Assembly (NCBI RefSeq): GCF_055900595.2
Contig: NZ_CM148325.1
Direction: 5' to 3' (one strand)
Length of the DNA stretch: 64,000 bases
In this document: positions 43,267 through 63,266 of the stretch, piece after piece
Position numbering within the stretch: the stretch's first letter is position 1
Layout: every line of letters starts with the position of its first letter
Notes under the pieces: model-generated
What the model saw: the letters and a program-made list of their open reading frames with translations, nothing else
Databases searched by the model: none
Told to the model about the DNA's origin: nothing
Program-made: the position numbers and the translations under genes

Positions 43267-46137
43267 TTATATTTTTTCCAGCGCGGTGAGTATTTTCTCC
43301 GGTGTGAAATGCCATTCGCGTAACCAGATGCCGCAGGCATCGTGAATTGCGGTAGCAATCGCCGGAGCTGCGCCATTTACACCGATTTCTGAGATTGATT
43401 TCGCCCCGAATGGGCCGACTTTATCGTCGCTCGGCACCAGCACAGCGCGGAAATCACGCGGAATGTCACCAATTTTCGGTGCGCCGTAACTGCGTAAATC
43501 ACGCGTTAACGGGTGGCCTTCGGCGTCATAAATGATTTCTTCGCTCATACTGTGCCCGATAGCACGCAGGGTGGCACCGTAGATTTGTCCCAACGCTAAC
43601 TCTGGATTGACCGGTGTACCGCAGTCCAGCAAGGCATAGAATTTATCCAGGCGGATTTCACCCGTACGTGTGTTGACGGCAACTTCAGCAAAGTTTGCGC
43701 CATACGGGAAGGCGAAATCAGGCGTGATATAACTGGCAGTTCCCACCAGTGAACCAAAACCGGTGCCGGTTTCGCCTTTATGGGCAATATCACCGAAACT
43801 AACTTCGCCTTTCTTGCCGCGAACGACACCCGGCGTTGCCAGTTGAACATCCTCCAGGGGTTCCCCCAGCATTTGTGCACCGTGGAACAGGATTTTCTCT
43901 CGGAGATTTTCTGCCGCCATACGCGCCGCGTTGCCGGAGAAACATGTACCGGACGAGGCATATGCGCCTTTATCAAACAGCGCATGATCGGTATCACCGG
44001 AGATAACATGCACGTCCTGCGGTGGGCAGTGCAGCACTTCTGCTGCCAGTTTCGTCACAACCGTATCCAGACCAGTACCAATATCCGCACCGCCAGAATG
44101 AACGATAAAAGTACCGTCCGATTCCAGTTTGATCATGCAGTTAGCCTGATCAATATCCGGGATACCCGATTTCTGCATGATAATGGCGACGCCGCGACCG
44201 ATGTGCCAGTCACCATTTTGCGGTTTTGGTGAAGACCATTGGATCATCTCGCGACCCTGACGCAGGATCTCTTCCAGCGCGCAGCTGGCGGCGGAAGGAA
44301 CGGAGGTCGGCGCTTTACCTTCACCAATCGCACCGAGAATTTTCAGCTCTTGCCCTTCGTGTACCCGATTACGTTCGATAATTTCCAGTTGATCGATCTG
44401 TAACTGTTCAGCCAGTTCCGCTAATGCCATGGTGATAGCGAAGTTACCTTTCGGTGCGCCATAACCCTGATAAGCACCATTTGGGCAAATGTTGCTGTAG
44501 TAGGTGGTGACCTGGAAATCGACGTTATCGCACGGATATAACGGCAGCGACAGCGCCGGTCCGTTACACGGTACGGTGAGTGAGTGGTTGCCGTAAGGGC
44601 CTGTGTTGGCGCGGAAATCCATCTTCACAGCCGTCAGGCGACCATCTTTCTTTGCCCCCAGTTTGACGGTGACTTTCGCGACGTGACGAGAGGTGTTAGC
44701 AATAAACTGTTCTTCACGGGTGTAGCGGAACAGTACCGGACGCCCGGTCACGCAGGTTGCCCAGGCGCACACTTCTTCCAGCAGGATGTCCTGTTTAGAC
44801 CCAAAACCGCCGCCAACTCGCTCTTTAATGACATGAACTTTATGTTGTTTCATGCCCACGAGGCGCGCGACCTGGCGGCGTAAGTGCCATGGTACCTGGG
44901 TGGAGGCGTGGATAACCAGACGATCGCCGTCCATACGGGTAAAGCAGATATGAGTTTCAGTCGGGCATTGCTGCGCCTGAGTTGAGTTATAGGTTCGCTC
45001 AATGATCACATCGGCATCGGCAAAGCCTTTATCCATATCGCCAATATGACCATGAATACTGGCGGCGATATTTTTACGAGGGCGAGAACCGATAGGGAAG
45101 TTGATAATCATATGCTCGCCGCGCTGGGCTGCATGGCTGTTATCGTCTTCCAGAGTGTCTGGCGCACCCGCCACATACACCACCGGTTCATCGTGTACGA
45201 CAGGCGCATCTTCCGCCATTGCCTCGTCAATCGACATTACAGGCTTAAGCACTTCATATTCAACGTCGATGAGCTTCAGTGCTTCGAGCGCAATTTCTTC
45301 ACTTTCAGCGACTACCGCAGCAACGCGATCGCCGACGTGACGCATTTTCTTGCCGAACATACGGCGGTCAAGCGGTGACGGTTCCGGTGCGCTCTGACCA
45401 CCCGGGGTGTAGTAGATATCCGGGCAATTCAGATGAGTAATAACGTGAACGACGCCTGGTAAGGCTTCAGCTTTGCTGACATCCAGGTGAGTAATCAGTG
45501 CGTGAGCGTGAGGGCTACGTAACATTTTAATGACGCAGGCGTCAGCCGTTACGCGGTCTTCAACATAGCAGGGTTTCGCCTGCACCATTTTTGCGGCATC
45601 AGTTTTAGGATAATGCTTACCAATGACTTCAAGGTCATCGCGGAAAGTCGGAGCGATATCAATGGTGGCCTGCGGGTTATTTTTACGTGCAACCGCCAGT
45701 TCAATGACCTGATAGTATTGTTGCCAGCCTGCATCGCGACTGAACAAACCAGAAAGCGCGTCGTCGATCTCTTCGCGGGTCGGTGCGGCGATACGCTCGA
45801 GCAGATCAGTGATAATCAGAGCAGCAGCTGGATCGTTATAACCAGACTGCACCACGCCAACATCAACCATTGCCTGTTGAACCAGACTTAACTCGTTCCA
45901 TTTTCCCAGAGACTCTGCGGTACGAATATTAGCCTTCTCTATCTGTGCGGCAATAAGTAAGGACGCGTTGACGATATTACCGTTAAAGATAATTGCGTCA
46001 GAACCGGCAAAACCGAATCCATCATCGCTGTTGCGTACAGAGTGCATTCCCATGTTAAACAACAGCTTTTGCACGTTTTCACCAGGATTAACGGTTAGCT
46101 CCTGGGGCGTGCCATTTAATGTAAAGTGGATGATCAT
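43267..46137 (-). CDS. xdhD: molybdopterin-containing hydroxylase, large subunit (xanthine dehydrogenase family, with N-terminal 2Fe-2S domain)
   Basis: 956-aa ORF. Confidence 0.88.
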   Translation of the reverse strand: MIIHFTLNGTPQELTVNPGENVQKLLFNMGMHSVRNSDDGFGFAGSDAIIFNGNIVNASLLIAAQIEKANIRTAESLGKWNELSLVQQAMVDVGVVQSGYNDPAAALIITDLLERIAAPTREEIDDALSGLFSRDAGWQQYYQVIELAVARKNNPQATIDIAPTFRDDLEVIGKHYPKTDAAKMVQAKPCYVEDRVTADACVIKMLRSPHAHALITHLDVSKAEALPGVVHVITHLNCPDIYYTPGGQSAPEPSPLDRRMFGKKMRHVGDRVAAVVAESEEIALEALKLIDVEYEVLKPVMSIDEAMAEDAPVVHDEPVVYVAGAPDTLEDDNSHAAQRGEHMIINFPIGSRPRKNIAASIHGHIGDMDKGFADADVIIERTYNSTQAQQCPTETHICFTRMDGDRLVIHASTQVPWHLRRQVARLVGMKQHKVHVIKERVGGGFGSKQDILLEEVCAWATCVTGRPVLFRYTREEQFIANTSRHVAKVTVKLGAKKDGRLTAVKMDFRANTGPYGNHSLTVPCNGPALSLPLYPCDNVDFQVTTYYSNICPNGAYQGYGAPKGNFAITMALAELAEQLQIDQLEIIERNRVHEGQELKILGAIGEGKAPTSVPSAASCALEEILRQGREMIQWSSPKPQNGDWHIGRGVAIIMQKSGIPDIDQANCMIKLESDGTFIVHSGGADIGTGLDTVVTKLAAEVLHCPPQDVHVISGDTDHALFDKGAYASSGTCFSGNAARMAAENLREKILFHGAQMLGEPLEDVQLATPGVVRGKKGEVSFGDIAHKGETGTGFGSLVGTASYITPDFAFPYGANFAEVAVNTRTGEIRLDKFYALLDCGTPVNPELALGQIYGATLRAIGHSMSEEIIYDAEGHPLTRDLRSYGAPKIGDIPRDFRAVLVPSDDKVGPFGAKSISEIGVNGAAPAIATAIHDACGIWLREWHFTPEKILTALEKI

Positions 46138-46913
46138 ACGGCTTCCTCCCCAGCCTGTTGGCAGTCGGCATAAAGGTCGGCTACCAGAACTCCCGTGATA
46201 TAGCGTTTATAGGCCACGCTGCCCCGCAAATCTTCCTGCGGGAAAATGGCGTTGGCGACAGCCTGTTCAAGGGCATCGCCTTCCAAGTTTTGTTTTTCAA
46301 CATCGTGCAGACGCAGTGCTTTACTGGCCACGCCATCCAACGCAATTCGCATACCGTCGTGATCGGTTAACGCAACGGCTGCCGTTACTACCGTTAACCC
46401 AGCCTGAGAACGGCTAATTTTGCGAGTCGCACAGGTGCGATACGGATCTTTAATGATGATTTCGGTTAGCAGGCGATCGCATGGGCAGGCCAGGTACTCC
46501 TCAATTGACAGAGTTTCACCGTTGCCAAAAACCAGTTCGGCATCCAGTGCCAGCAGGACGGGAAGCAGCACCGACTCTTCCTGCCGGGCGGCGATTTCAC
46601 CACCAATGGTCGACTGATTACGAATATGGCGAGAGTAGACAAAGCCGAGAGCCTCACGCAGTGCTGCAGGAATAAACCGTGCATCACGCAGTGTTTGCAA
46701 GCGAGACATCGCGCCAATCCGCAATGCACCGTTATCCCAGTCAACCCAGTCCAGTTCCAGATCCTGTAAGGATATGGCAATCTTTTTATCGGTACGGGTT
46801 GGTGTGGCGTTGAGTTTACTGCCTCCGGCAAACCAGACAGCTTCATCCTGATAGCGGCGCTTCAGTTCCAGCGCCTGTTCGACAGAGTCGGGTCTGAAAA
46901 ATTGTTCAATCAT
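46134..46913 (-). CDS. ygfM: FAD-binding subunit of molybdo-hydroxylase (CO dehydrogenase flavoprotein-like)
   Basis: 259-aa ORF; start overlaps xdhD. Confidence 0.85.
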   Translation of the reverse strand: MIEQFFRPDSVEQALELKRRYQDEAVWFAGGSKLNATPTRTDKKIAISLQDLELDWVDWDNGALRIGAMSRLQTLRDARFIPAALREALGFVYSRHIRNQSTIGGEIAARQEESVLLPVLLALDAELVFGNGETLSIEEYLACPCDRLLTEIIIKDPYRTCATRKISRSQAGLTVVTAAVALTDHDGMRIALDGVASKALRLHDVEKQNLEGDALEQAVANAIFPQEDLRGSVAYKRYITGVLVADLYADCQQAGEEAV

Positions 46914-51490: not shown

Positions 51491-51714
51491 GGTTTGGCGG
51501 GAAATATAAAAAAATGTGAGGCGGCTCGAAACTTAAGGGCTTTTTGTGAATGAACTCACAGGTGCCAAATGAGAATTAAAATCACTCCTGGAAATTATTA
51601 TTACCAGCCCATTTATCACTTTTTCTCTTTTCTCAAAATCAGTGATTCCTTATCATAATGATAAAGCAGGCTGGATGGTTTAAATATTTGAGCGCAAACG
51701 TTTAACTACGTTTT

Positions 51715-52293
51715 CTAAATTTCAGTATACCTTTTTTGCGCTGTAATAAAGTCGTCCGGAGTATCAATATCTAAAATTATTTCTGCATTCTCTATTTCGA
51801 CGGAATAATGTTCTCCCATAAGGAGTGCCTGACGCATATTGGTGACATTGGGTCGCTGGGTTGCCTGCATCAGGCATGGCTTTGACACTAAAATCGGATG
51901 GCCGGGGATACCTTTATGGAGTGGCAGTATTGCGCCATCATTACGTAACGACCAGATTTTTCTAAAAATATCGATGGTGAGGGTTGGCATGTCACCGTGG
52001 GTGAGAAAACAATGTTCGGTTTGCACCGCGGGTACTGCGGCCTTTACTGATGTCAGTAAACCCTGCGCATAATTTGGGTTGTGGATAATAGTGATATTAC
52101 TCTGGTTCGCATAACGTTCGTGCAGTTCATTACCACGATAGCCGGTGACTAAAATAATTCGGCTACAAAACTGCAACGCATTTTTGATACTTGCATCAAG
52201 AATTGTTCCCTGTTGCCAGGGTAACATCATTTTCCATTGCCCCATTCTTGATGATAATCCGGCAGCGGTAATTATACAGTCGATGGCTGACAT
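51715..52293 (-). CDS. mocA: molybdenum cofactor cytidylyltransferase
   Basis: 192-aa ORF MSAIDCIITAAGLSSRMGQWKMMLPW (MobA-like nucleotidyltransferase). Confidence 0.85.
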   Translation of the reverse strand: MSAIDCIITAAGLSSRMGQWKMMLPWQQGTILDASIKNALQFCSRIILVTGYRGNELHERYANQSNITIIHNPNYAQGLLTSVKAAVPAVQTEHCFLTHGDMPTLTIDIFRKIWSLRNDGAILPLHKGIPGHPILVSKPCLMQATQRPNVTNMRQALLMGEHYSVEIENAEIILDIDTPDDFITAQKRYTEI

Positions 52294-52395
52294 AGTGGTT
52301 CCATTATTTATAGGGGCTAATAACGCCTGATAATTGCGTTACTTCCTGATGGATTAAGTTGGGGATAATTTATCCCAGAGAGGTCATAAAGACTC

Positions 52396-53166
52396 GTGAA
52401 AAGTATAGTTGACCCATCGGCATTATTCATTGATTTAGGCGCGCAGAAACGCCCCACTGTGATTTCTGTTGTTGGGGCTGGGGGGAAAACCAGCTTGCTT
52501 TTTTGGCTGGCAGAACTGCTCCAGGCTAGCGGCAGGCGTGTGTTAATCACTACGACGACACATATGTTTATGCCAACGTCTCACTGGCCCGTGGTTTTCT
52601 GTCGTGATCCCGCCATGCTTCCTCATGCGTCTCTTACATCCCCCATTTCATTTTGTTTTCACAGCTGGAAAGCGAACCAGGGAAAAGTGCAGGGATTTAT
52701 GCCAGAAGCGATTGATGCACTGGTGCAACGACCAGAGTGTGACGTAATTCTCATTGAGGCAGATGGCTCGCGTGGAATGCCGTTAAAAGCGCCTGATGAG
52801 CACGAACCTTGCATACCCAAAAGCAGTTGCTGCGTGATTGCTGTGATGGGAGGACATATTTTGGGTGCGAAAGTGAGCACAGAAAATGTCCATCGCTGGT
52901 CGCAGTTTGCTGATATTACCGGGTTAACACCTGATGCAACCTTGCAACTGAGCGATCTCGTTGCGCTGGTTCGCCACCCTCAGGGCGCATTTAAAAACGT
53001 ACCGCAAGGTTGTCGGCGAGTCTGGTTCATTAACCGTTTTTCTCAATGTGAGAATGCGATTGCGCAAAGCGAGCTCCTTCAACCGCTGCAACAACACGAC
53101 GTAGAGGCAATCTGGCTGGGCGATATACAAGAACATCCTGCAATCGCGCGCAGATTTGTGAATTAG
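52396..53166 (+). CDS. yqeC: YqeC, accessory protein of the putative selenium-dependent molybdenum hydroxylase system
   Basis: 256-aa ORF with P-loop-like VVGAGGKTS. Confidence 0.8.
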   Translation: MKSIVDPSALFIDLGAQKRPTVISVVGAGGKTSLLFWLAELLQASGRRVLITTTTHMFMPTSHWPVVFCRDPAMLPHASLTSPISFCFHSWKANQGKVQGFMPEAIDALVQRPECDVILIEADGSRGMPLKAPDEHEPCIPKSSCCVIAVMGGHILGAKVSTENVHRWSQFADITGLTPDATLQLSDLVALVRHPQGAFKNVPQGCRRVWFINRFSQCENAIAQSELLQPLQQHDVEAIWLGDIQEHPAIARRFVN

Positions 53167-53213
53167 CGGCCCGGGTATTCCGGGTTACTGAAAGGATATC
53201 CATTGAGGTTGGT

Positions 53214-54839
53214 ATGAATATTTTCACAGAGGCTGCAAAACTTGAAGAGCAAAATTGTCCGTTTGCGATGGCGCAAATTGTTGATAGCCGAGGCTCGACT
53301 CCCCGCCATTCTGCACAAATGTTAGTGCGCGCCGATGGTTCTATCGTCGGTACAATTGGTGGTGGAATGGTTGAGCGGAAGGTGATTGAAGAGTCGCTTC
53401 AGGCATTGCAGGAACGTAAGCCGCGATTATTCCATGGACGTATGGCTCGTAACGGTGTGGATGCTGTCGGGTCAGATTGTGGAGGTGCAATGTCCGTGTT
53501 TATCAGCGTCCATGGTATGCGTCCTCGTCTGGTGTTGATTGGCGCGGGGCATGTCAACCGGGCGATAGCCCAGAGTGCGGCGCTATTAGGATTTGATATT
53601 GCCGTTGCCGATATTTATCGCGAAAGCCTTAATCCTGAATTATTCCCACCATCAACCACGCTTCTCCATGCTGAGTCGTTTGGTGCGGCAGTGGAAGCAC
53701 TGGATATTCGCCCTGATAATTTTGTCCTGATTGCCACGAATAATCAGGATCGTGAAGCCCTCGACAAACTCATTGAACAGCCCATTGCATGGCTGGGGTT
53801 GCTGGCAAGTCGCCGCAAGGTTCAGCTTTTCCTACGTCAATTGCGTGAGAAAGGCGTGGCTGAAGAACATATTGCCCGTTTACATGCGCCCGTTGGTTAC
53901 AACATAGGTGCGGAAACGCCGCAGGAGATCGCCATCAGCGTGCTGGCAGAAATATTACAGGTGAAAAATAACGCGCCGGGTGGGCTGATGATGAAACCTT
54001 CTCATCCTTCCGGACACCAGCTGGTGGTGATTCGCGGTGCGGGGGATATCGCCAGTGGTGTGGCGCTACGTCTGTATCATGCGGGTTTTAAAGTGATCAT
54101 GCTGGAAGTGGAAAAACCGACAGTGATTCGTTGTACCGTGGCGTTTGCCCAGGCCGTGTTCGATGGCGAAATGACGGTCGAAGGCGTCACTGCCCGCCTG
54201 GCAACCAGCTCTGCGGAAGCGATGAAACTTACCGAACGCGGATTCATCCCTGTGATGGTAGATCCCGCCTGTTCATTGCTTGATGAACTGAAACCGCTTT
54301 GCGTGGTGGACGCTATTCTGGCGAAACAGAATTTGGGTACGCGGGCAGATATGGCACCAGTAACAATCGCGCTTGGGCCGGGCTTTACTGCTGGGAAGGA
54401 TTGCCATGCGGTAATTGAAACAAATCGCGGGCACTGGCTCGGTCAGGTGATTTACTCTGGTTGTGCGCAGGAGAATACCGGTGTTCCCGGCAATATTATG
54501 GGGCATACCACCCGACGGGTGATCCGTGCTCCTGCTGCAGGCATTATGCGATCCAACGTGAAATTAGGCGATCTGGTGAAAGAGGGCGATGTGATTGCCT
54601 GGATTGGTGAGCATGAAATTAAAGCACCGTTGACGGGGATGGTGCGTGGCTTGTTGAACGACGGACTGGCGGTGGTCGGTGGTTTTAAAATTGGTGATAT
54701 CGATCCACGTGGTGAAACGGCTGATTTCACCAGCGTTTCTGATAAAGCCCGGGCAATTGGCGGCGGCGTACTTGAGGCATTAATGATGTTGATGCATCAG
54801 GGCGTTAAAGCGACAAAAGAAGTGCTGGAAGTGGCTTAA
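53214..54839 (+). CDS. yqeB: YqeB, XdhC/CoxI-family molybdo-hydroxylase maturation protein
   Basis: 541-aa ORF MNIFTEAAKLEEQNCPFAMAQIVDSRGSTPRHSAQMLV. Confidence 0.85.
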   Translation: MNIFTEAAKLEEQNCPFAMAQIVDSRGSTPRHSAQMLVRADGSIVGTIGGGMVERKVIEESLQALQERKPRLFHGRMARNGVDAVGSDCGGAMSVFISVHGMRPRLVLIGAGHVNRAIAQSAALLGFDIAVADIYRESLNPELFPPSTTLLHAESFGAAVEALDIRPDNFVLIATNNQDREALDKLIEQPIAWLGLLASRRKVQLFLRQLREKGVAEEHIARLHAPVGYNIGAETPQEIAISVLAEILQVKNNAPGGLMMKPSHPSGHQLVVIRGAGDIASGVALRLYHAGFKVIMLEVEKPTVIRCTVAFAQAVFDGEMTVEGVTARLATSSAEAMKLTERGFIPVMVDPACSLLDELKPLCVVDAILAKQNLGTRADMAPVTIALGPGFTAGKDCHAVIETNRGHWLGQVIYSGCAQENTGVPGNIMGHTTRRVIRAPAAGIMRSNVKLGDLVKEGDVIAWIGEHEIKAPLTGMVRGLLNDGLAVVGGFKIGDIDPRGETADFTSVSDKARAIGGGVLEALMMLMHQGVKATKEVLEVA

Positions 54840-54879
54840 ATGAAAATGGCCGGATGGTATTACCCACCCGGCCTTTAAA

Positions 54880-55812
54880 TTACTGACAAATCACCGTTCC
54901 GGTTTTGCCTTCAATCCCTTCTTTCGCTTTGCTCAATACGGTAATCAGTGCTTCGCGTCCAGCGCGAGAGCGAGCAAACGAGGCGGCTGCTTCCACTTTA
55001 GGCAGCATAGAACCTTTCGCAAAATGACCTTCTTCGATAAAGCGTTCAGCATCGACCAATGACAGGCGGTCGAGCCACTGCTCATTCTCTTTACCGAAGT
55101 TAATGGCCACTTTTTCTACCGCGGTCAGAATGATCAGCATATCGGCATCAATCATTTCTGCTAAACGGGCACTGGCCCAGTCTTTATCGATAACCGCGCT
55201 GGCACCACGCAGATGGTTACCTTCACGAATAACAGGAATACCACCACCGCCAACGGTGATCACTACCTGGCCTGCATCTACCAGAGCTTTAACCGTTTCT
55301 TTTTCAATGATATCAACCGGTTTTGGCGAGGCAACAACACGGCGATAGCCGCGACCAGCATCTTCTTTCAGAGTGTAACCCTGTTTTGTCAGTTGCTCGG
55401 CTTCCTGCTCGGTAAAGAACGAACCGATTGGTTTGGTCGGGTTGAGGAATGCCGGATCGTTAGCGTCGACTTCGACCTGGGTAACCAGCGTTGCTACAGG
55501 TTTATTAATGCCACGAGAAAGCAGTTCTTCTCTTAAGGCGTTTTGTAGATCGTAACCAATATAACCCTGGCTTAAGGCAACACAGACAGACATCGGCAGC
55601 ATTGGCGAGTGCGCTTCCGTTTTTGCGGCAGCTTCAAAGGCCTGGTTAATCATGCCCACCTGCGGCCCGTTACCATGAGTGACGATGACCTCATGTCCCT
55701 GGGCAATTAAATCAACAATTGCCTGAGACGTAATTTTTACCGCTTTCATTTGTCCGGCTAGATCGTCGCCCAGCGCATTCCCGCCCAGGGCGAGAACAAT
55801 TTTCTTACTCAT
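54880..55812 (-). CDS. yqeA: carbamate kinase-like protein
   Basis: 310-aa ORF MSKKIVLALGGNALG (amino acid kinase family). Confidence 0.88.
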   Translation of the reverse strand: MSKKIVLALGGNALGDDLAGQMKAVKITSQAIVDLIAQGHEVIVTHGNGPQVGMINQAFEAAAKTEAHSPMLPMSVCVALSQGYIGYDLQNALREELLSRGINKPVATLVTQVEVDANDPAFLNPTKPIGSFFTEQEAEQLTKQGYTLKEDAGRGYRRVVASPKPVDIIEKETVKALVDAGQVVITVGGGGIPVIREGNHLRGASAVIDKDWASARLAEMIDADMLIILTAVEKVAINFGKENEQWLDRLSLVDAERFIEEGHFAKGSMLPKVEAAASFARSRAGREALITVLSKAKEGIEGKTGTVICQ

Positions 55813-59821: not shown

Positions 59822-61012
59822 TTATTTCACGCGTTCTTGCGCTTCTTTCAGCAGTTGTTCGAGCAGTGCGCCTGGTTTGGAATATTTACGGGAAAGGATC
59901 ATTGCTGCGATGATGTATGGCTTCCAGCTGGCTTCTTTGTAGGTCGCGATACGGTATTTTTCGAATACGCCTTCAGTGACTTCACCTTCTTTGCAGGATA
60001 CGCCGCTGATATCTGCTGGCAGGCAGTGCATGTACAGGGCTTCGCCATCACGGGTCAGTTCCATCATCTCTTCAGTGCAATGCCAGTCTTTGTGTTGCGC
60101 GTTCTGTGCCAGACACTGTTTTTCCAGTGCTTTTAAGCCTTCGTGATCGTTCGCACGCAGCAGTTCAGTACGCTCTTCCATCACTTTGTAAGGTGCCCAT
60201 GACTTCGGATAAACGATGTCTGCGTCTTTGAAGGCTTCTTCCATGCTGGTGACCTGACGGAAGCTACCGCCAGAGGCTTTAGCATTATTTTTAGCTACTT
60301 CAACTACATCCGGGATCAAATCGTAGCCTTCCGGATGGGCCAGGGTGACATCCATACCGAAGCGGGTCATCAGGCCGATAATGCCTTGCGGTACAGAGAG
60401 CGGTTTGCCGTAGCTTGGCGAGTATGCCCAGGTCATGGCGATTTTTTTACCTTTCAGGTTTTCGAGCGAACCAAAGTGTTCACGCAACCATGCCAGGTCA
60501 GCCATTGACTGAGTCGGATGGTCGATATCGCATTGCAGGTTCACTAAAGCCGGACGCTGTGGAAGCACGCCCTGCTTGTAGCCGTCATCAAGCGCAGCGC
60601 CAACTTCACGCATATAGGCGTTACCTGCGCCCAGATACATATCGTCACGAATACCAATAGAGTCGGCGCAGAAGGAGATCATATTGGCGGTTTCACGTAC
60701 GGTTTCGCCGTGAGCGATTTGTGATTTGCCTTCGTCGAGATCTTGCTGTGCAAGGCCGAGCAGGTTAAGCGCGGAAGCATAAGAGAAGCGGGTACGGGTG
60801 GAGTTGTCGCGGAATACGGAAATACCTAATCCACTATTAAAGACTTTGGTTGAGATGTTTTCAGCACGCAGTGCTTTTAATGCTGCGGCAACGTCCAGTA
60901 CTTGTTTCAGTTCATCAGGCGTCTGTTCCCACGTTAACAAAAAATCTTTCTCGTGAAGGTGAGAGGTCAGCGAATTGATATCCTTAATCAGCTCATTAAC
61001 AGTTTTCATCAT
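59822..61012 (-). CDS. ygeW: carbamoyltransferase YgeW (ATCase/OTCase fold)
   Basis: 396-aa ORF MMKTVNELIKDINSLTSHLHEKDF with carbamoyl-phosphate-binding STRTR. Confidence 0.88.
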   Translation of the reverse strand: MMKTVNELIKDINSLTSHLHEKDFLLTWEQTPDELKQVLDVAAALKALRAENISTKVFNSGLGISVFRDNSTRTRFSYASALNLLGLAQQDLDEGKSQIAHGETVRETANMISFCADSIGIRDDMYLGAGNAYMREVGAALDDGYKQGVLPQRPALVNLQCDIDHPTQSMADLAWLREHFGSLENLKGKKIAMTWAYSPSYGKPLSVPQGIIGLMTRFGMDVTLAHPEGYDLIPDVVEVAKNNAKASGGSFRQVTSMEEAFKDADIVYPKSWAPYKVMEERTELLRANDHEGLKALEKQCLAQNAQHKDWHCTEEMMELTRDGEALYMHCLPADISGVSCKEGEVTEGVFEKYRIATYKEASWKPYIIAAMILSRKYSKPGALLEQLLKEAQERVK

Positions 61013-61103
61013 AAAGTCCCGGTAGTGGAATGACAGGCAAAGTGGTTTATTTCACTGTGACTTGCCAAAGTGATTGGTGTTTTCACAGCTATACCAGGGA
61101 CTA

Positions 61104-61118
61104 ACAATAAGTGTGCCA
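61104..61118 (-). promoter_or_regulatory. candidate sigma54 promoter for ygeW
   Basis: Minus-strand TGGCAC-actta-TTGT about 90 nt upstream of the ygeW ATG; -24 element perfect, -12 has GT instead of GC. Confidence 0.3.
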
Positions 61119-61487: not shown

Positions 61488-63266
61488 ATGGAGCTTGCTA
61501 CTACGCAGTCAGTATTGATGCAAATTCAACCGACAATTCAGCGTTTTGCCAGAATGCTTGCCAGCGTTTTGCAGCTTGAGGTTGAGATCGTTGATGAAAA
61601 CTTGTGTCGCGTCGCCGGAACGGGCGCGTATGGGAAGTTTCTTGGCCGCCAGTTGAGCGGCAACTCACGCCTGCTCCGCCACGTCCTGGAAACGAAAACT
61701 GAAAAAGTTGTGACACAGTCTCGCTTCGATCCCCTTTGCGAAGGTTGCGATAATAAAGATAATTGTCGCGAAAAAGCATTTCTGGGTACGCCTGTCATTT
61801 TACAGGATCGTTGTGTTGGGGTGATAAGTTTGATTGCAGTTACCCACGAGCAACAAGAACATATCAGTGATAATTTACGCGAGTTTTCTGATTACGTTCG
61901 CCATATATCCACCATTTTTGTTTCGAAACTTCTGGAGGATCAGGGACCAGGAGATAACATCAGTAAAATATTCGCGACCATGATCGATAATATGGATCAG
62001 GGCGTATTAGTTGTTGATGACGATAATCGGGTTCAGTTTGTTAATCAGACGGCCTTAAAAACACTCGGTGTTGTGCAAAATAATATTATTGGGAAACCTA
62101 TCCGTTTCAGACCATTAACATTTGAGAGTAATTTTACCCACGGACATATGCAACATATTGTTTCGTGGGACGATAAAAGTGAATTAATCATTGGTCAATT
62201 GCATAACATTCAGGGCAGACAATTATTTTTAATGGCGTTTCACCAATCGCATACCAGTTTTTCTGTAGCAAATGCACCTGATGAACCGCATATTGAACAA
62301 TTGGTTGGCGAGTGCCGTGTTATGCGGCAATTAAAACGACTCATTAGCCGTATTGCGCCCAGCCCATCCAGCGTTATGGTGGTTGGTGAAAGCGGCACGG
62401 GTAAAGAAGTCGTCGCGCGTGCAATCCATAAGTTGAGTGGAAGACGAAATAAACCCTTTATTGCTATCAACTGTGCCGCGATTCCTGAACAACTTCTGGA
62501 GAGCGAACTATTCGGTTATGTTAAAGGCGCATTTACTGGCGCTTCAGCCAACGGTAAAACAGGGTTGATTCAGGCGGCGAATACGGGCACGCTGTTTCTC
62601 GATGAAATTGGTGATATGCCATTAATGTTGCAGGCTAAATTACTGCGCGCTATTGAGGCGCGTGAAATACTGCCGATTGGTGCCAGTAGCCCAATTCAGG
62701 TCGACATCCGAATCATTTCTGCAACTAACCAGAATTTGGCCCAGTTCATTGCCGAAGGTAAATTCCGCGAAGATCTCTTCTACCGACTCAATGTTATCCC
62801 GATCACTCTTCCACCGCTGCGTGAACGTCAGGAAGATATTGAACTGCTGGTACATTACTTTTTACATCTGCATACCCGTCGTCTGGGATCGGTTTATCCG
62901 GGTATTGCTCCCGATGTCGTCGAGATATTGCGTAAGCATCGTTGGCCCGGAAACCTGCGCGAGTTAAGCAATTTAATGGAATATCTGGTTAACGTTGTTC
63001 CTTCAGGTGAAGTTATCGACAGCACGCTATTGCCTCCAAATTTGCTGAATAATGGCACAACGGAGCAAAGTGATGTAACAGAGGTCAGCGAGGCGCACTT
63101 GGCACTCGATGATGCGGGCGGCACGGCGCTGGAGGAGATGGAAAAGCAAATGATCCGCGAGGCGCTTTCACGTCATAACAGCAAGAAGCAAGTTGCTGAT
63201 GAACTGGGTATCGGCATTGCTACGCTCTATCGCAAGATAAAGAAATATGAGTTGTTAAACGCATAA
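61488..63266 (+). CDS. ygeV: sigma54-dependent transcriptional activator (bacterial enhancer-binding protein)
   Basis: 592-aa ORF with Walker A GESGTGKE, GAFTGA motif and C-terminal HTH. Confidence 0.9.
   Translation: MELATTQSVLMQIQPTIQRFARMLASVLQLEVEIVDENLCRVAGTGAYGKFLGRQLSGNSRLLRHVLETKTEKVVTQSRFDPLCEGCDNKDNCREKAFLGTPVILQDRCVGVISLIAVTHEQQEHISDNLREFSDYVRHISTIFVSKLLEDQGPGDNISKIFATMIDNMDQGVLVVDDDNRVQFVNQTALKTLGVVQNNIIGKPIRFRPLTFESNFTHGHMQHIVSWDDKSELIIGQLHNIQGRQLFLMAFHQSHTSFSVANAPDEPHIEQLVGECRVMRQLKRLISRIAPSPSSVMVVGESGTGKEVVARAIHKLSGRRNKPFIAINCAAIPEQLLESELFGYVKGAFTGASANGKTGLIQAANTGTLFLDEIGDMPLMLQAKLLRAIEAREILPIGASSPIQVDIRIISATNQNLAQFIAEGKFREDLFYRLNVIPITLPPLRERQEDIELLVHYFLHLHTRRLGSVYPGIAPDVVEILRKHRWPGNLRELSNLMEYLVNVVPSGEVIDSTLLPPNLLNNGTTEQSDVTEVSEAHLALDDAGGTALEEMEKQMIREALSRHNSKKQVADELGIGIATLYRKIKKYELLNA

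Follow-up and report, generated by a model that had tools for sequence, protein, structure and literature searches.

The yqeC–yqeB gene pair of Escherichia coli and its probable role in providing labile selenium to molybdenum hydroxylases

[quoted passage not shown] These hydroxylases start the anaerobic degradation of urate and purines by gut bacteria, and so help urate clearance in humans, who lack uricase. The markers of this selenium cofactor trait are YqeB (TIGR03309, the EF2563 family) and YqeC (TIGR03172, the EF2564 family), for both of which the E. coli proteins are the type members. TIGR03309 was found only in selD-positive genomes by Haft and Self in 2008 (PMC2276186) and by Zhang et al. 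in the same year (PMC2432076), clustering with the genes for molybdenum hydroxylases, XdhC and MocA. Peng et al. (2016, PMC5029168) redid the co-occurrence analysis on >5200 genomes, where YqeB or YqeC alone was sometimes present without the full selenium trait. The first-pass annotation of the locus studied here had proposed a survey of yqeB and yqeC against selD and the molybdo-hydroxylases as a check; this is already published, with a positive outcome.

Deletion of yqeB in C. difficile gives the selD phenotype on xanthine and urate, and deletion of yqeC gives no phenotype (Johnstone and Self 2024, PMC11448449); in the words of these authors the selenophosphate origin of the labile selenium is not established. 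The XdhD homologue DOPDH of C. sporogenes has no activity when isolated from selD-mutant cells, and all strains with the urate cluster carry YqeBC and SelD (bioRxiv 10.1101/2025.04.24.650524). Dependence of a client enzyme on selD or yqeB has been observed in these two species only, as a growth phenotype in C. difficile and with the purified enzyme in C. sporogenes. XdhD-YgfM from E. coli converts urate to 2,8-dioxopurine by reduction, and the active enzyme was purified with no mention of added selenium (PMC12507026). Neumann and Leimkuhler proposed that YqeB is a chaperone shared by XdhABC and XdhD (PMC2997495). The literature searched offers no E. coli data that connect selD to xdhD or to urate, no selenium content or requirement for E. 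coli XdhD or XdhABC, and no loss of activity for E. coli yqeB or yqeC mutants. A role of yqeC and yqeB in selenium insertion is a known and published hypothesis, while the biochemistry of the family is still inferred. Our observation of the gene pair adds nothing beyond that hypothesis; the structural and fusion data presented below serve only to sharpen the choice of experiments.

The window, i.e. the whole stretch of DNA analyzed, comprises 64 kb of an E. coli chromosome, and many genomes match it at 99.5% identity. The relevant features are the following.

43267-46137, minus strand: xdhD (open reading frame and RefSeq name)
46134-46913, minus strand: ygfM (open reading frame and RefSeq name)
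51715-52293, minus strand: mocA (ygfJ), molybdenum cofactor cytidylyltransferase (open reading frame, TIGR03310 and RefSeq name)
52294-52395: divergent mocA/yqeC intergenic region, 102 bp
52307-52334, plus strand: weak sigma-70-like match TTTATA-16-GATAAT, the only one in this intergenic region
52396-53166, plus strand: yqeC, GTG start, 256 amino acids, equal to the RefSeq CDS yqeC in 99.5%-identical E. coli genomes
52474-52494, plus strand: Walker A codons of YqeC, residues G27-A-G-G-K-T-S33
52797-52813, plus strand: intragenic sigma-54 promoter (-24/-12) for yqeB, the exact published 17-mer TGAGCACGAACCTTGCA
53214-54839, plus strand: yqeB, ATG start, 541 amino acids, equal to the RefSeq CDS yqeB in the same genomes
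53247-53969, plus strand: N-terminal XdhC-like module of YqeB, residues 12-252 (XdhC_CoxI plus XdhC Rossmann domain)
54024-54791, plus strand: C-terminal TIGR03309 (EF2563-type) domain of YqeB, residues 271-526 (profile match)
54848-54873: GC-rich hairpin between the convergent yqeB and arcC, with a T-run on the arcC side
54880-55812, minus strand: arcC/yqeA (carbamate kinase), convergent with yqeB

The first-pass annotation had placed the yqeC–yqeB pair exactly, both open reading frames coinciding with RefSeq coding sequences, and was right that it diverges from mocA and lies between mocA and the carbamate kinase gene. The product of mocA scores 216 bits against TIGR03310 (cut-off 186), and the gene heads the run mocA-ygfK-ssnA-ygfM-xdhD. 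XdhD-YgfM is the likely client molybdo-hydroxylase. In the window yqeC and yqeB are clustered with MocA and with genes for molybdenum hydroxylases of the xanthine oxidase family: mocA is adjacent, xdhD-ygfM is 5.5 kb away and xdhC(FeS)/xdhB ~8.5 kb. The selD gene is not within the 64 kb. RefSeq names both YqeC and YqeB as selenium cofactor biosynthesis proteins, and the maturation or selenium-insertion role suggested by the first reading agrees with these names, with the published hypothesis and with our own analysis of neighbourhoods.

Transcription of the two genes as a pair, as originally described, requires qualification. A sigma-54 promoter within yqeC drives yqeB, as established by ChIP, mutagenesis, RT-qPCR and Western data (PMC4591121), so that YqeB can be produced independently of YqeC. 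The element overlaps YqeC codons E135-H-E-P-C-I140, which include the invariant EP motif. Ten proteobacterial loci carry its core GCAYGARCCTTGCAT unchanged, with the synonymous positions fixed, and conservation of the site at synonymous positions of codons extends over gamma- and beta-proteobacteria. A scan of the window with the sigma-54 consensus gave 23 matches where 27.8 were expected, so the window sequence by itself does not reveal the site, which is supported by the published experiments and by conservation between species. Scanning 51600-55000 for sigma-70 promoters and terminators likewise gave nothing above chance (7 promoter sites, 4.8 expected), and an Rfam scan of 51500-55100 returned a single sub-threshold chance match.

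YqeC clearly belongs to its family, scoring 239.8 bits against the TIGR03172 equivalog (cut-off 73.05) and 144 bits against PF19842 (cut-off 27.6). The P-loop noted earlier is real: the motif GAGGKTS occupies residues 27-33, and G27, G29, G30 and K31 are invariant across 70 diverse homologues. A Walker A sequence of the form GxxGxGK[ST], a Walker B acid following a hydrophobic strand and a SIMIBI-type fold mark YqeC as a predicted P-loop NTPase of the SIMIBI class. In the alignment of 70 the family also carries an E-A-D-G motif, together with invariant motifs of its own (TTTT, K97, K131, EP and R167). Of an NKxD-like motif, the N occurs in 68/70 sequences, the K in 41/70 and the D in 43/70; E. 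coli YqeC reads N213-R-F-S at this place. The closest structural matches are GTPase switches of the SRP family and UreG; a sequence search of the PDB with YqeC gave zero matches, even at E 10.

YqeB is a fusion of two modules, so the earlier description of the protein as XdhC/CoxI-like holds for residues 12-252 and fails for residues 271-526. PF02625 matches residues 12-74 at 70.7 bits (cut-off 24.3), PF13478 matches residues 106-247 at 118.7 bits (cut-off 29.7), and a PDB sequence search finds the XdhC-family structures 2we7 (E 1e-26) and 3on5. The N-terminal module is thus predicted to be the part that acts as a chaperone binding the molybdenum cofactor. YqeB lies below the cut-offs of the XdhC equivalog TIGR02964 (109.9 bits, 161.6 required) and of the AOR maturation factor NF045664 (200.3 bits, 350 required). 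Residues 271-526 cover the full TIGR03309 model (1-256) at 417 bits (cut-off 220). This domain, by which the selenium cofactor trait is marked, defines YqeB and is its predicted catalytic part.

Conservation in YqeB is highest in the C-terminal domain, with 52-60% identity to homologues in Clostridia, Spirochaetes and Actinobacteria. The domain has about 38 invariant residues, many of them charged, and a GxGD(I/L)A(S/T)G loop; strand 2 closes with an acidic position that is E or D in 40/40 sequences. The AF2 model (pLDDT 93.1) suggests a Rossmann-like lobe followed by a biotinyl-like barrel. Comparison with PDB structures gave a match for a sub-domain and none for the whole domain, and revealed no recognizable site for selenophosphate or molybdenum cofactor. 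For lack of both a solved homologue and such a site, the chemistry proposed for the domain is a guess, and as regards chemistry the caution that function cannot be established from sequence was fair. Three candidate readings were rejected. A catalytic cysteine carrying persulfide or perselenide fails because no cysteine is invariant in 40 sequences, with Cys at positions 136 (24/40), 180 (20/40, Ala in E. coli) and 46 (16/40). Divergence from a copied XdhC Rossmann domain is unsupported, hhalign against an XdhC alignment giving it 6% probability. The barrel is not a biotin or lipoyl carrier, as it lacks the conserved lysine; between G191 and G214 the consensus is VGDxPVxAPLxG, with no invariant Lys.

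How is the pair arranged in other genomes? Of 80 genome loci, 71 have yqeC next to yqeB and 64 have an XdhC-like gene that is fused or adjoining, although about 55 of the 80 derive from the single genus Collinsella; in a non-redundant subset yqeC is near yqeB in about 20 of 23 mapped loci. Related loci repeat the clustering of yqeB and yqeC with genes for molybdenum hydroxylases and MocA, and in all lineages the neighbours are purine-catabolic or cofactor genes. In most lineages the TIGR03309 domain stands alone beside a separate XdhC gene. The selD gene is adjacent to yqeB or within about 0.8 kb of it in L058, L073, L074, L077 and L082, four of which are clostridial. L082 is a metagenomic operon with the order TusA-like, class V aminotransferase, Se_S_carrier, SelD, a YqeC::MocA::YqeB triple fusion and a molybdenum hydroxylase. 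MocA is the partner in 15 of 19 multidomain YqeC representatives, in both domain orders, and YqeC::YqeB, MocA::YqeB and ModE_N::YqeC fusions are also present. Two observations count against the proposed role: the occasional presence of YqeB or YqeC alone without the full selenium trait (PMC5029168), and locus L083, which has a MocA::YqeC fusion with neither YqeB nor a molybdenum enzyme nearby.

[quoted passage not shown] The clients would be XdhD-YgfM and probably XdhABC. MCD would be made by MocA from Mo-molybdopterin and CTP, the reaction performed by the E. coli enzyme, and would then be held by the XdhC-like N-terminal half of YqeB, as homology to XdhC and PaoD suggests. The TIGR03309 domain, acting without cysteine and perhaps binding the nucleotide part of MCD through its Rossmann-like lobe, could exchange a terminal oxo or sulfido ligand of molybdenum for selenium, the donor being the selenophosphate that SelD makes or a selenium species formed from that. 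YqeB might then hand the cofactor to the apo-hydroxylase. YqeC, as a putative SIMIBI-type NTPase that is GTPase-like in most family members, would be a nucleotide-driven adaptor or gate at the interface of MocA and YqeB, by analogy with MobB for MobA and with UreG, HypB and CooC for metal centres. It would raise efficiency and not be strictly essential; the lack of a phenotype on deletion in C. difficile leaves this role weakly constrained. The sigma-54 promoter within yqeC gives yqeB an expression of its own, in E. coli as in related proteobacteria.

A sharper and more tentative version divides the functions completely. Here TIGR03309 would be a new cysteine-independent selenotransferase. Its Rossmann-like lobe would recognize the cytidine nucleotide of MCD and, with the cofactor seated on the fused XdhC module, the domain would write Mo=Se from selenophosphate. 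YqeC would be no selenium enzyme but the equivalent of MobB, as the GTPase partner of MocA. This division would explain why YqeC is fused mainly to MocA, why it is dispensable in C. difficile, and why yqeB in proteobacteria is uncoupled by a sigma-54 promoter within the codons of the invariant HEP motif of YqeC.

These proposals must be weighed against other functions. YqeB in E. coli might be a shared XdhC-type chaperone that binds and sulfurates MCD by means of a cysteine desulfurase and inserts it into XdhABC and XdhD, with no selenium role and with the C-terminal domain a structural or regulatory appendage. The N-terminal half is indeed a bona fide XdhC-family module, a chaperone shared by the two enzymes was the proposal of Neumann and Leimkuhler (PMC2997495), and active XdhD-YgfM was obtained from E. 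coli without a stated selenium supplement (PMC12507026). Yet the degree of conservation of the C-terminal domain across phyla is unlike the behaviour of an appendage; moreover the domain stands alone next to a separate XdhC gene in most lineages, and is tied to selD by distribution, adjacency and the C. difficile phenotype. We regard a purely sulfurating YqeB as improbable.

For YqeC the competing idea, which we judge unlikely, replaces the adaptor or switch by a synthetase that phosphorylates its substrate, as BioD, PurA and CTP synthase do: NTP would activate a cofactor oxygen or a selenium carrier, and selenium would then displace the phosphate. An obligatory activator should show a phenotype, and deletion in C. 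difficile showed none; the structural matches to GTPase switches and the preferential fusion to MocA, which parallels the MobA/MobB pair, also point away from it. The older reading of the ygfK region, by which the pair would serve the reduction of selenate or selenite in detoxification, survives in the RefSeq label of YgfK as a 'putative selenate reductase subunit' and in the mention of a selenate-reduction region by Haft and Self (PMC2276186). It is now largely refuted and very improbable indeed, since YgfK has been shown to act in the urate pathway, as its 2,8-dioxopurine reductase (PMC12507026), and the genes around the pair are concerned with purine catabolism or cofactors in all lineages.

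In E. coli the whole system of MocA, YqeC, YqeB and XdhD-YgfM is present in one tractable locus and an assay already exists, the conversion of urate to 2,8-dioxopurine, so that the selenium question is directly testable there.

Comparison with known systems shows what is shared and what is particular to this pair. The C-terminal domain of YqeB resembles the BCCP biotinyl and lipoyl carriers and the C-terminal domain of AstE/AspA-family deacylases in the fold of a sub-domain only, the whole-domain TM-scores being ≤ 0.29, and the absence of a conserved lysine at the hairpin tip of the barrel rules out a swinging-arm carrier. YqeC shares the SIMIBI P-loop fold of MobB, UreG, HypB and CooC. Like MobB with MobA, it is often fused or adjacent to a nucleotidyl transferase, MocA. 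MobB is dispensable, and YqeC appears to be so in vivo in C. difficile. In contrast to MobB, YqeC is larger, has its own invariant motifs and gives no match to the MobB model; an hhalign comparison with a MobB sequence covers just the P-loop region (31 columns, 77% probability), and neither this nor the profile models detects homology beyond it. YqeB residues 12-252 share both XdhC Pfam domains with the XdhC, PaoD and CoxI proteins, such as R. capsulatus XdhC and E. coli PaoD, and by analogy the cofactor would be expected to bind to YqeB, undergo exchange of its terminal ligand there and then be inserted by YqeB. YqeB differs from XdhC in falling below the equivalog cut-offs, in its fusion to an unrelated second domain, and in a ligand presumed to be selenium in place of sulfur. 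With the trait markers of the selenium-dependent molybdenum hydroxylases there is no difference: E. coli YqeB and YqeC are these markers, far above the equivalog cut-offs and in the cluster context described in 2008 (PMC2276186).

The yqeC-yqeB pair lies within an anaerobic purine/urate cluster of an E. coli chromosome, flanked on one side by xdhD-ygfM-ssnA-ygfK-mocA and on the other by yqeA-hyuA-ygeY-ygeX-ygeW, then ygeV and then xdhCBA. ORF calling reproduces exactly the coordinates of both genes in the first-pass annotation:

51715-52293, - strand, mocA, divergent from yqeC across a 102 bp spacer
52396-53166, + strand, yqeC, ORF of 256 aa with a GTG start
53214-54839, + strand, yqeB, ORF of 541 aa
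54880-55812, - strand, arcC/yqeA, convergent with yqeB

RefSeq names the products 'selenium cofactor biosynthesis protein YqeC' and 'selenium-dependent molybdenum cofactor biosynthesis protein YqeB'. The region 52000-55200 is matched in 5173 of 5426 complete E. coli genomes (best 99.5% identity). Since 253 of the 5426 have no match, the module is near-core rather than universal; one genome has a plasmid copy. In the 47-bp spacer between the genes (53167-53213) a short hairpin (CCCGG-GTATT-CCGGG) directly follows the yqeC stop codon, and the Shine-Dalgarno sequence GAGG stands 8 nt 5′ of the yqeB ATG. A further 10-bp GC-rich hairpin (54848-54873) occupies the 40-bp gap between the convergent yqeB and arcC, with a T-run on the arcC side only; the yqeB side continues with TTTAAATTA.

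The pair had been read as a likely maturation or selenium-insertion module for the neighbouring molybdo-hydroxylases. The observation is confirmed and the interpretation supported, and it is already present in the literature and in genome annotation. The YqeB and YqeC families were found in 2008 by profiling against selD and by clustering with molybdenum hydroxylases, XdhC and the MobA-related MocA, and fusions were already noted then (PMC2276186; PMC2432076). SelD, YqeB and YqeC are the signature of the 'Se-cofactor trait' in a survey of >5200 genomes (PMC5029168). The co-occurrence of the pair with selD and molybdenum hydroxylases, which the first-pass annotation proposed as a check, is therefore published and positive (PMC2276186; PMC2432076; PMC5029168). 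In C. difficile on xanthine and urate, deletion of yqeB gives the selD phenotype and deletion of yqeC gives none (PMC11448449). The surrounding cluster encodes a reductive 2,8-dioxopurine pathway, and E. coli XdhD-YgfM converts urate to 2,8-dioxopurine (PMC12507026). The C. sporogenes XdhD homologue purified from a selD mutant is inactive, and YqeBC and SelD are present in all strains with the cluster (bioRxiv 10.1101/2025.04.24.650524). Leimkuhler's group proposed YqeB as an XdhC-type chaperone common to XdhABC and XdhD (PMC2997495). Given this profiling, genetics and chaperone proposal, both the reading and its proposed check repeat known work. Our literature search found no paper on a biochemical activity of YqeC or YqeB.

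YqeB is built from two modules. Residues 12-252 comprise XdhC_CoxI and XdhC Rossmann domains, with sequence matches to two crystal structures of the XdhC family, 2we7 and 3on5. Residues 271-526 form the TIGR03309 domain (417 bits; cut-off 220), and thus the description of YqeB as XdhC/CoxI-like holds for the first module and not for the family-defining half. Conservation of this C-domain is exceptionally high at the sequence level, at 52-60% identity between E. coli and Clostridia, Spirochaetes and Actinobacteria, and its AF2 model has a pLDDT of 93.1. The domain has a Rossmann-like lobe whose GxGD(I/L)A(S/T)G loop, together with an acidic residue ending strand 2, makes up the classical ribose-binding signature. 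A Foldseek search with the C-domain gave TM-scores ≤0.29. The aligned homologues have neither a conserved hairpin lysine nor an invariant cysteine, and many Asp, Glu, Arg, Lys and His residues are invariant. The domain looks like an enzyme binding a nucleotide-containing ligand, rather than a carrier protein, and that ligand may be molybdopterin-cytosine-dinucleotide (MCD). This two-module nature is worth carrying forward, as is a TIGR03309 domain with no catalytic cysteine and no solved homologue. In one close C-domain homologue (P0127, alignment A1) T, S, P and A are systematically replaced by F, I and V, a pattern that is probably an artefact of sequencing or translation in that assembly.

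YqeC matches TIGR03172 (239.8 bits; cut-off 73) and PF19842, and its AF2 model has a pLDDT of 93.8. Invariant in the family are G27xGGK31, T55 (within a TTTT run, residues 52-55), K97, E121-x-D123-G124, K131, E137-P138 and R167; at N213 most members have an NKxD-like motif, which is NRFS in E. coli. Several E. coli entries of 180-183 aa (P0008, P0013 and P0024) span only ~70% of the protein, which suggests that in some strains the start is called differently or the allele is truncated.

The gene also carries a promoter. A sigma-54 promoter within yqeC drives yqeB, as demonstrated by ChIP, promoter mutation, RT-qPCR and Western blot (Bonocora et al., PMC4591121), and on its mutation YqeB becomes undetectable (PMC4591121). 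The published 17-mer matches exactly at 52797-52813, overlapping codons E135-H-E-P-C-I140, the invariant EP motif of the family. Its core GCAYGARCCTTGCAT is exact, single and at the same position in Escherichia, Kluyvera, Cedecea, Edwardsiella, two Aeromonas, three Photobacterium and one Rhodocyclaceae genome. At these loci Pro is always encoded by CCT and Cys by TGC, and the residue before them, which varies (E, K, G, L or R), invariably has a G-ending codon; this indicates selection acting on the DNA as well as on the protein. In Firmicutes yqeC encodes HEPV, and the sigma-54 motif is absent. Across the window there are 23 sigma-54-like matches where 27.8 are expected, so that by the window alone the yqeC site is indistinguishable from chance. 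Because YqeB can be produced without YqeC, the two genes do not form a simple two-gene operon. Such independence agrees with the stronger deletion phenotype of yqeB and with a SigL promoter described 5′ of yqeB in C. difficile (PMC11448449). The intragenic promoter is deeply conserved and worth carrying forward. Elsewhere, a sigma-54-like -24/-12 element TGGCACACTTATTGTT at 61103-61118 (- strand) lies ~90 bp 5′ of ygeW (59822-61012, - strand). It adjoins ygeV (61488-63266), which runs divergently and encodes a sigma-54 activator. The element is a candidate promoter for the operon ygeW-ygeX-ygeY-hyuA-yqeA, of a pattern whose matches in the window are not above chance.

When one genome per species was scanned, at least 590 loci proved to encode the TIGR03309 domain. 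Used as tblastn queries, the E. coli proteins detect YqeC in 71 of the best 80 loci and XdhC-like sequence in 64, counts that overstate independence because ~55 of the loci come from Collinsella. In a non-redundant subset yqeC is near yqeB in about 20 of 23 mapped loci. Gamma- and beta-proteobacteria keep the order mocA(-) yqeC(+) xdhC::yqeB(+), and in Spirochaetes an xdhC::yqeB fusion comes after yqeC. Collinsella groups yqeC and yqeB with an unfused xdhC beside hyuA, ygeW, ygeY and ygeX; the order in Thermosediminibacter is yqeC-mocA-xdhC-yqeB. Four clostridial lineages cluster yqeC, yqeB and selD, with selD directly 3′ of yqeB in two and ≤~0.8 kb away in two.

Among the 150 best 50%-identity YqeC-family representatives 19 multidomain proteins were tested, of which 15 join YqeC to MocA, in either domain order, showing MocA to be YqeC's preferred partner. 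The 19 further include one YqeC::MocA::YqeB (P0312), one YqeC::YqeB (P0345) and one ModE_N::YqeC (P0354), and a MocA::YqeB fusion also exists (P0237). A compact operon on a metagenomic contig (L082:4338-12573) encodes TusA-like, class V aminotransferase, Se_S_carrier and SelD proteins, the YqeC::MocA::YqeB triple fusion (777 aa) and a molybdenum hydroxylase (Fer2/Ald_Xan_dh_C/MoCoBD). The fusions tie E. coli mocA, yqeC and yqeB to one process and one substrate. At another locus a gene fuses MocA to YqeC (L083:6642-8051), and neither a YqeB domain nor a molybdoenzyme is encoded within ~6.6 kb on each side. This hints that YqeC may serve MocA beyond the selenium trait. The predicted SIMIBI fold of YqeC and its linkage to MocA are worth carrying forward.

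MocA makes MCD, and its synthesis would be the first step of the mechanism we propose. The XdhC-like half of YqeB would, by homology, hold the MCD while the TIGR03309 domain installs labile selenium from a SelD-derived donor, and YqeB would then hand the cofactor over to XdhD, and perhaps also to XdhA. The main rival is that YqeB acts in E. coli as a selenium-independent chaperone; distribution, adjacency, fusions and the genetics of C. difficile and C. sporogenes argue for selenium installation. For YqeC the main rival is chemistry of its own, a BioD/PurA-like activation. Its fold, fusions and dispensability suggest instead that it acts at the MocA/YqeB step as an adaptor driven by NTP, by analogy with MobB, UreG, HypB or CooC.
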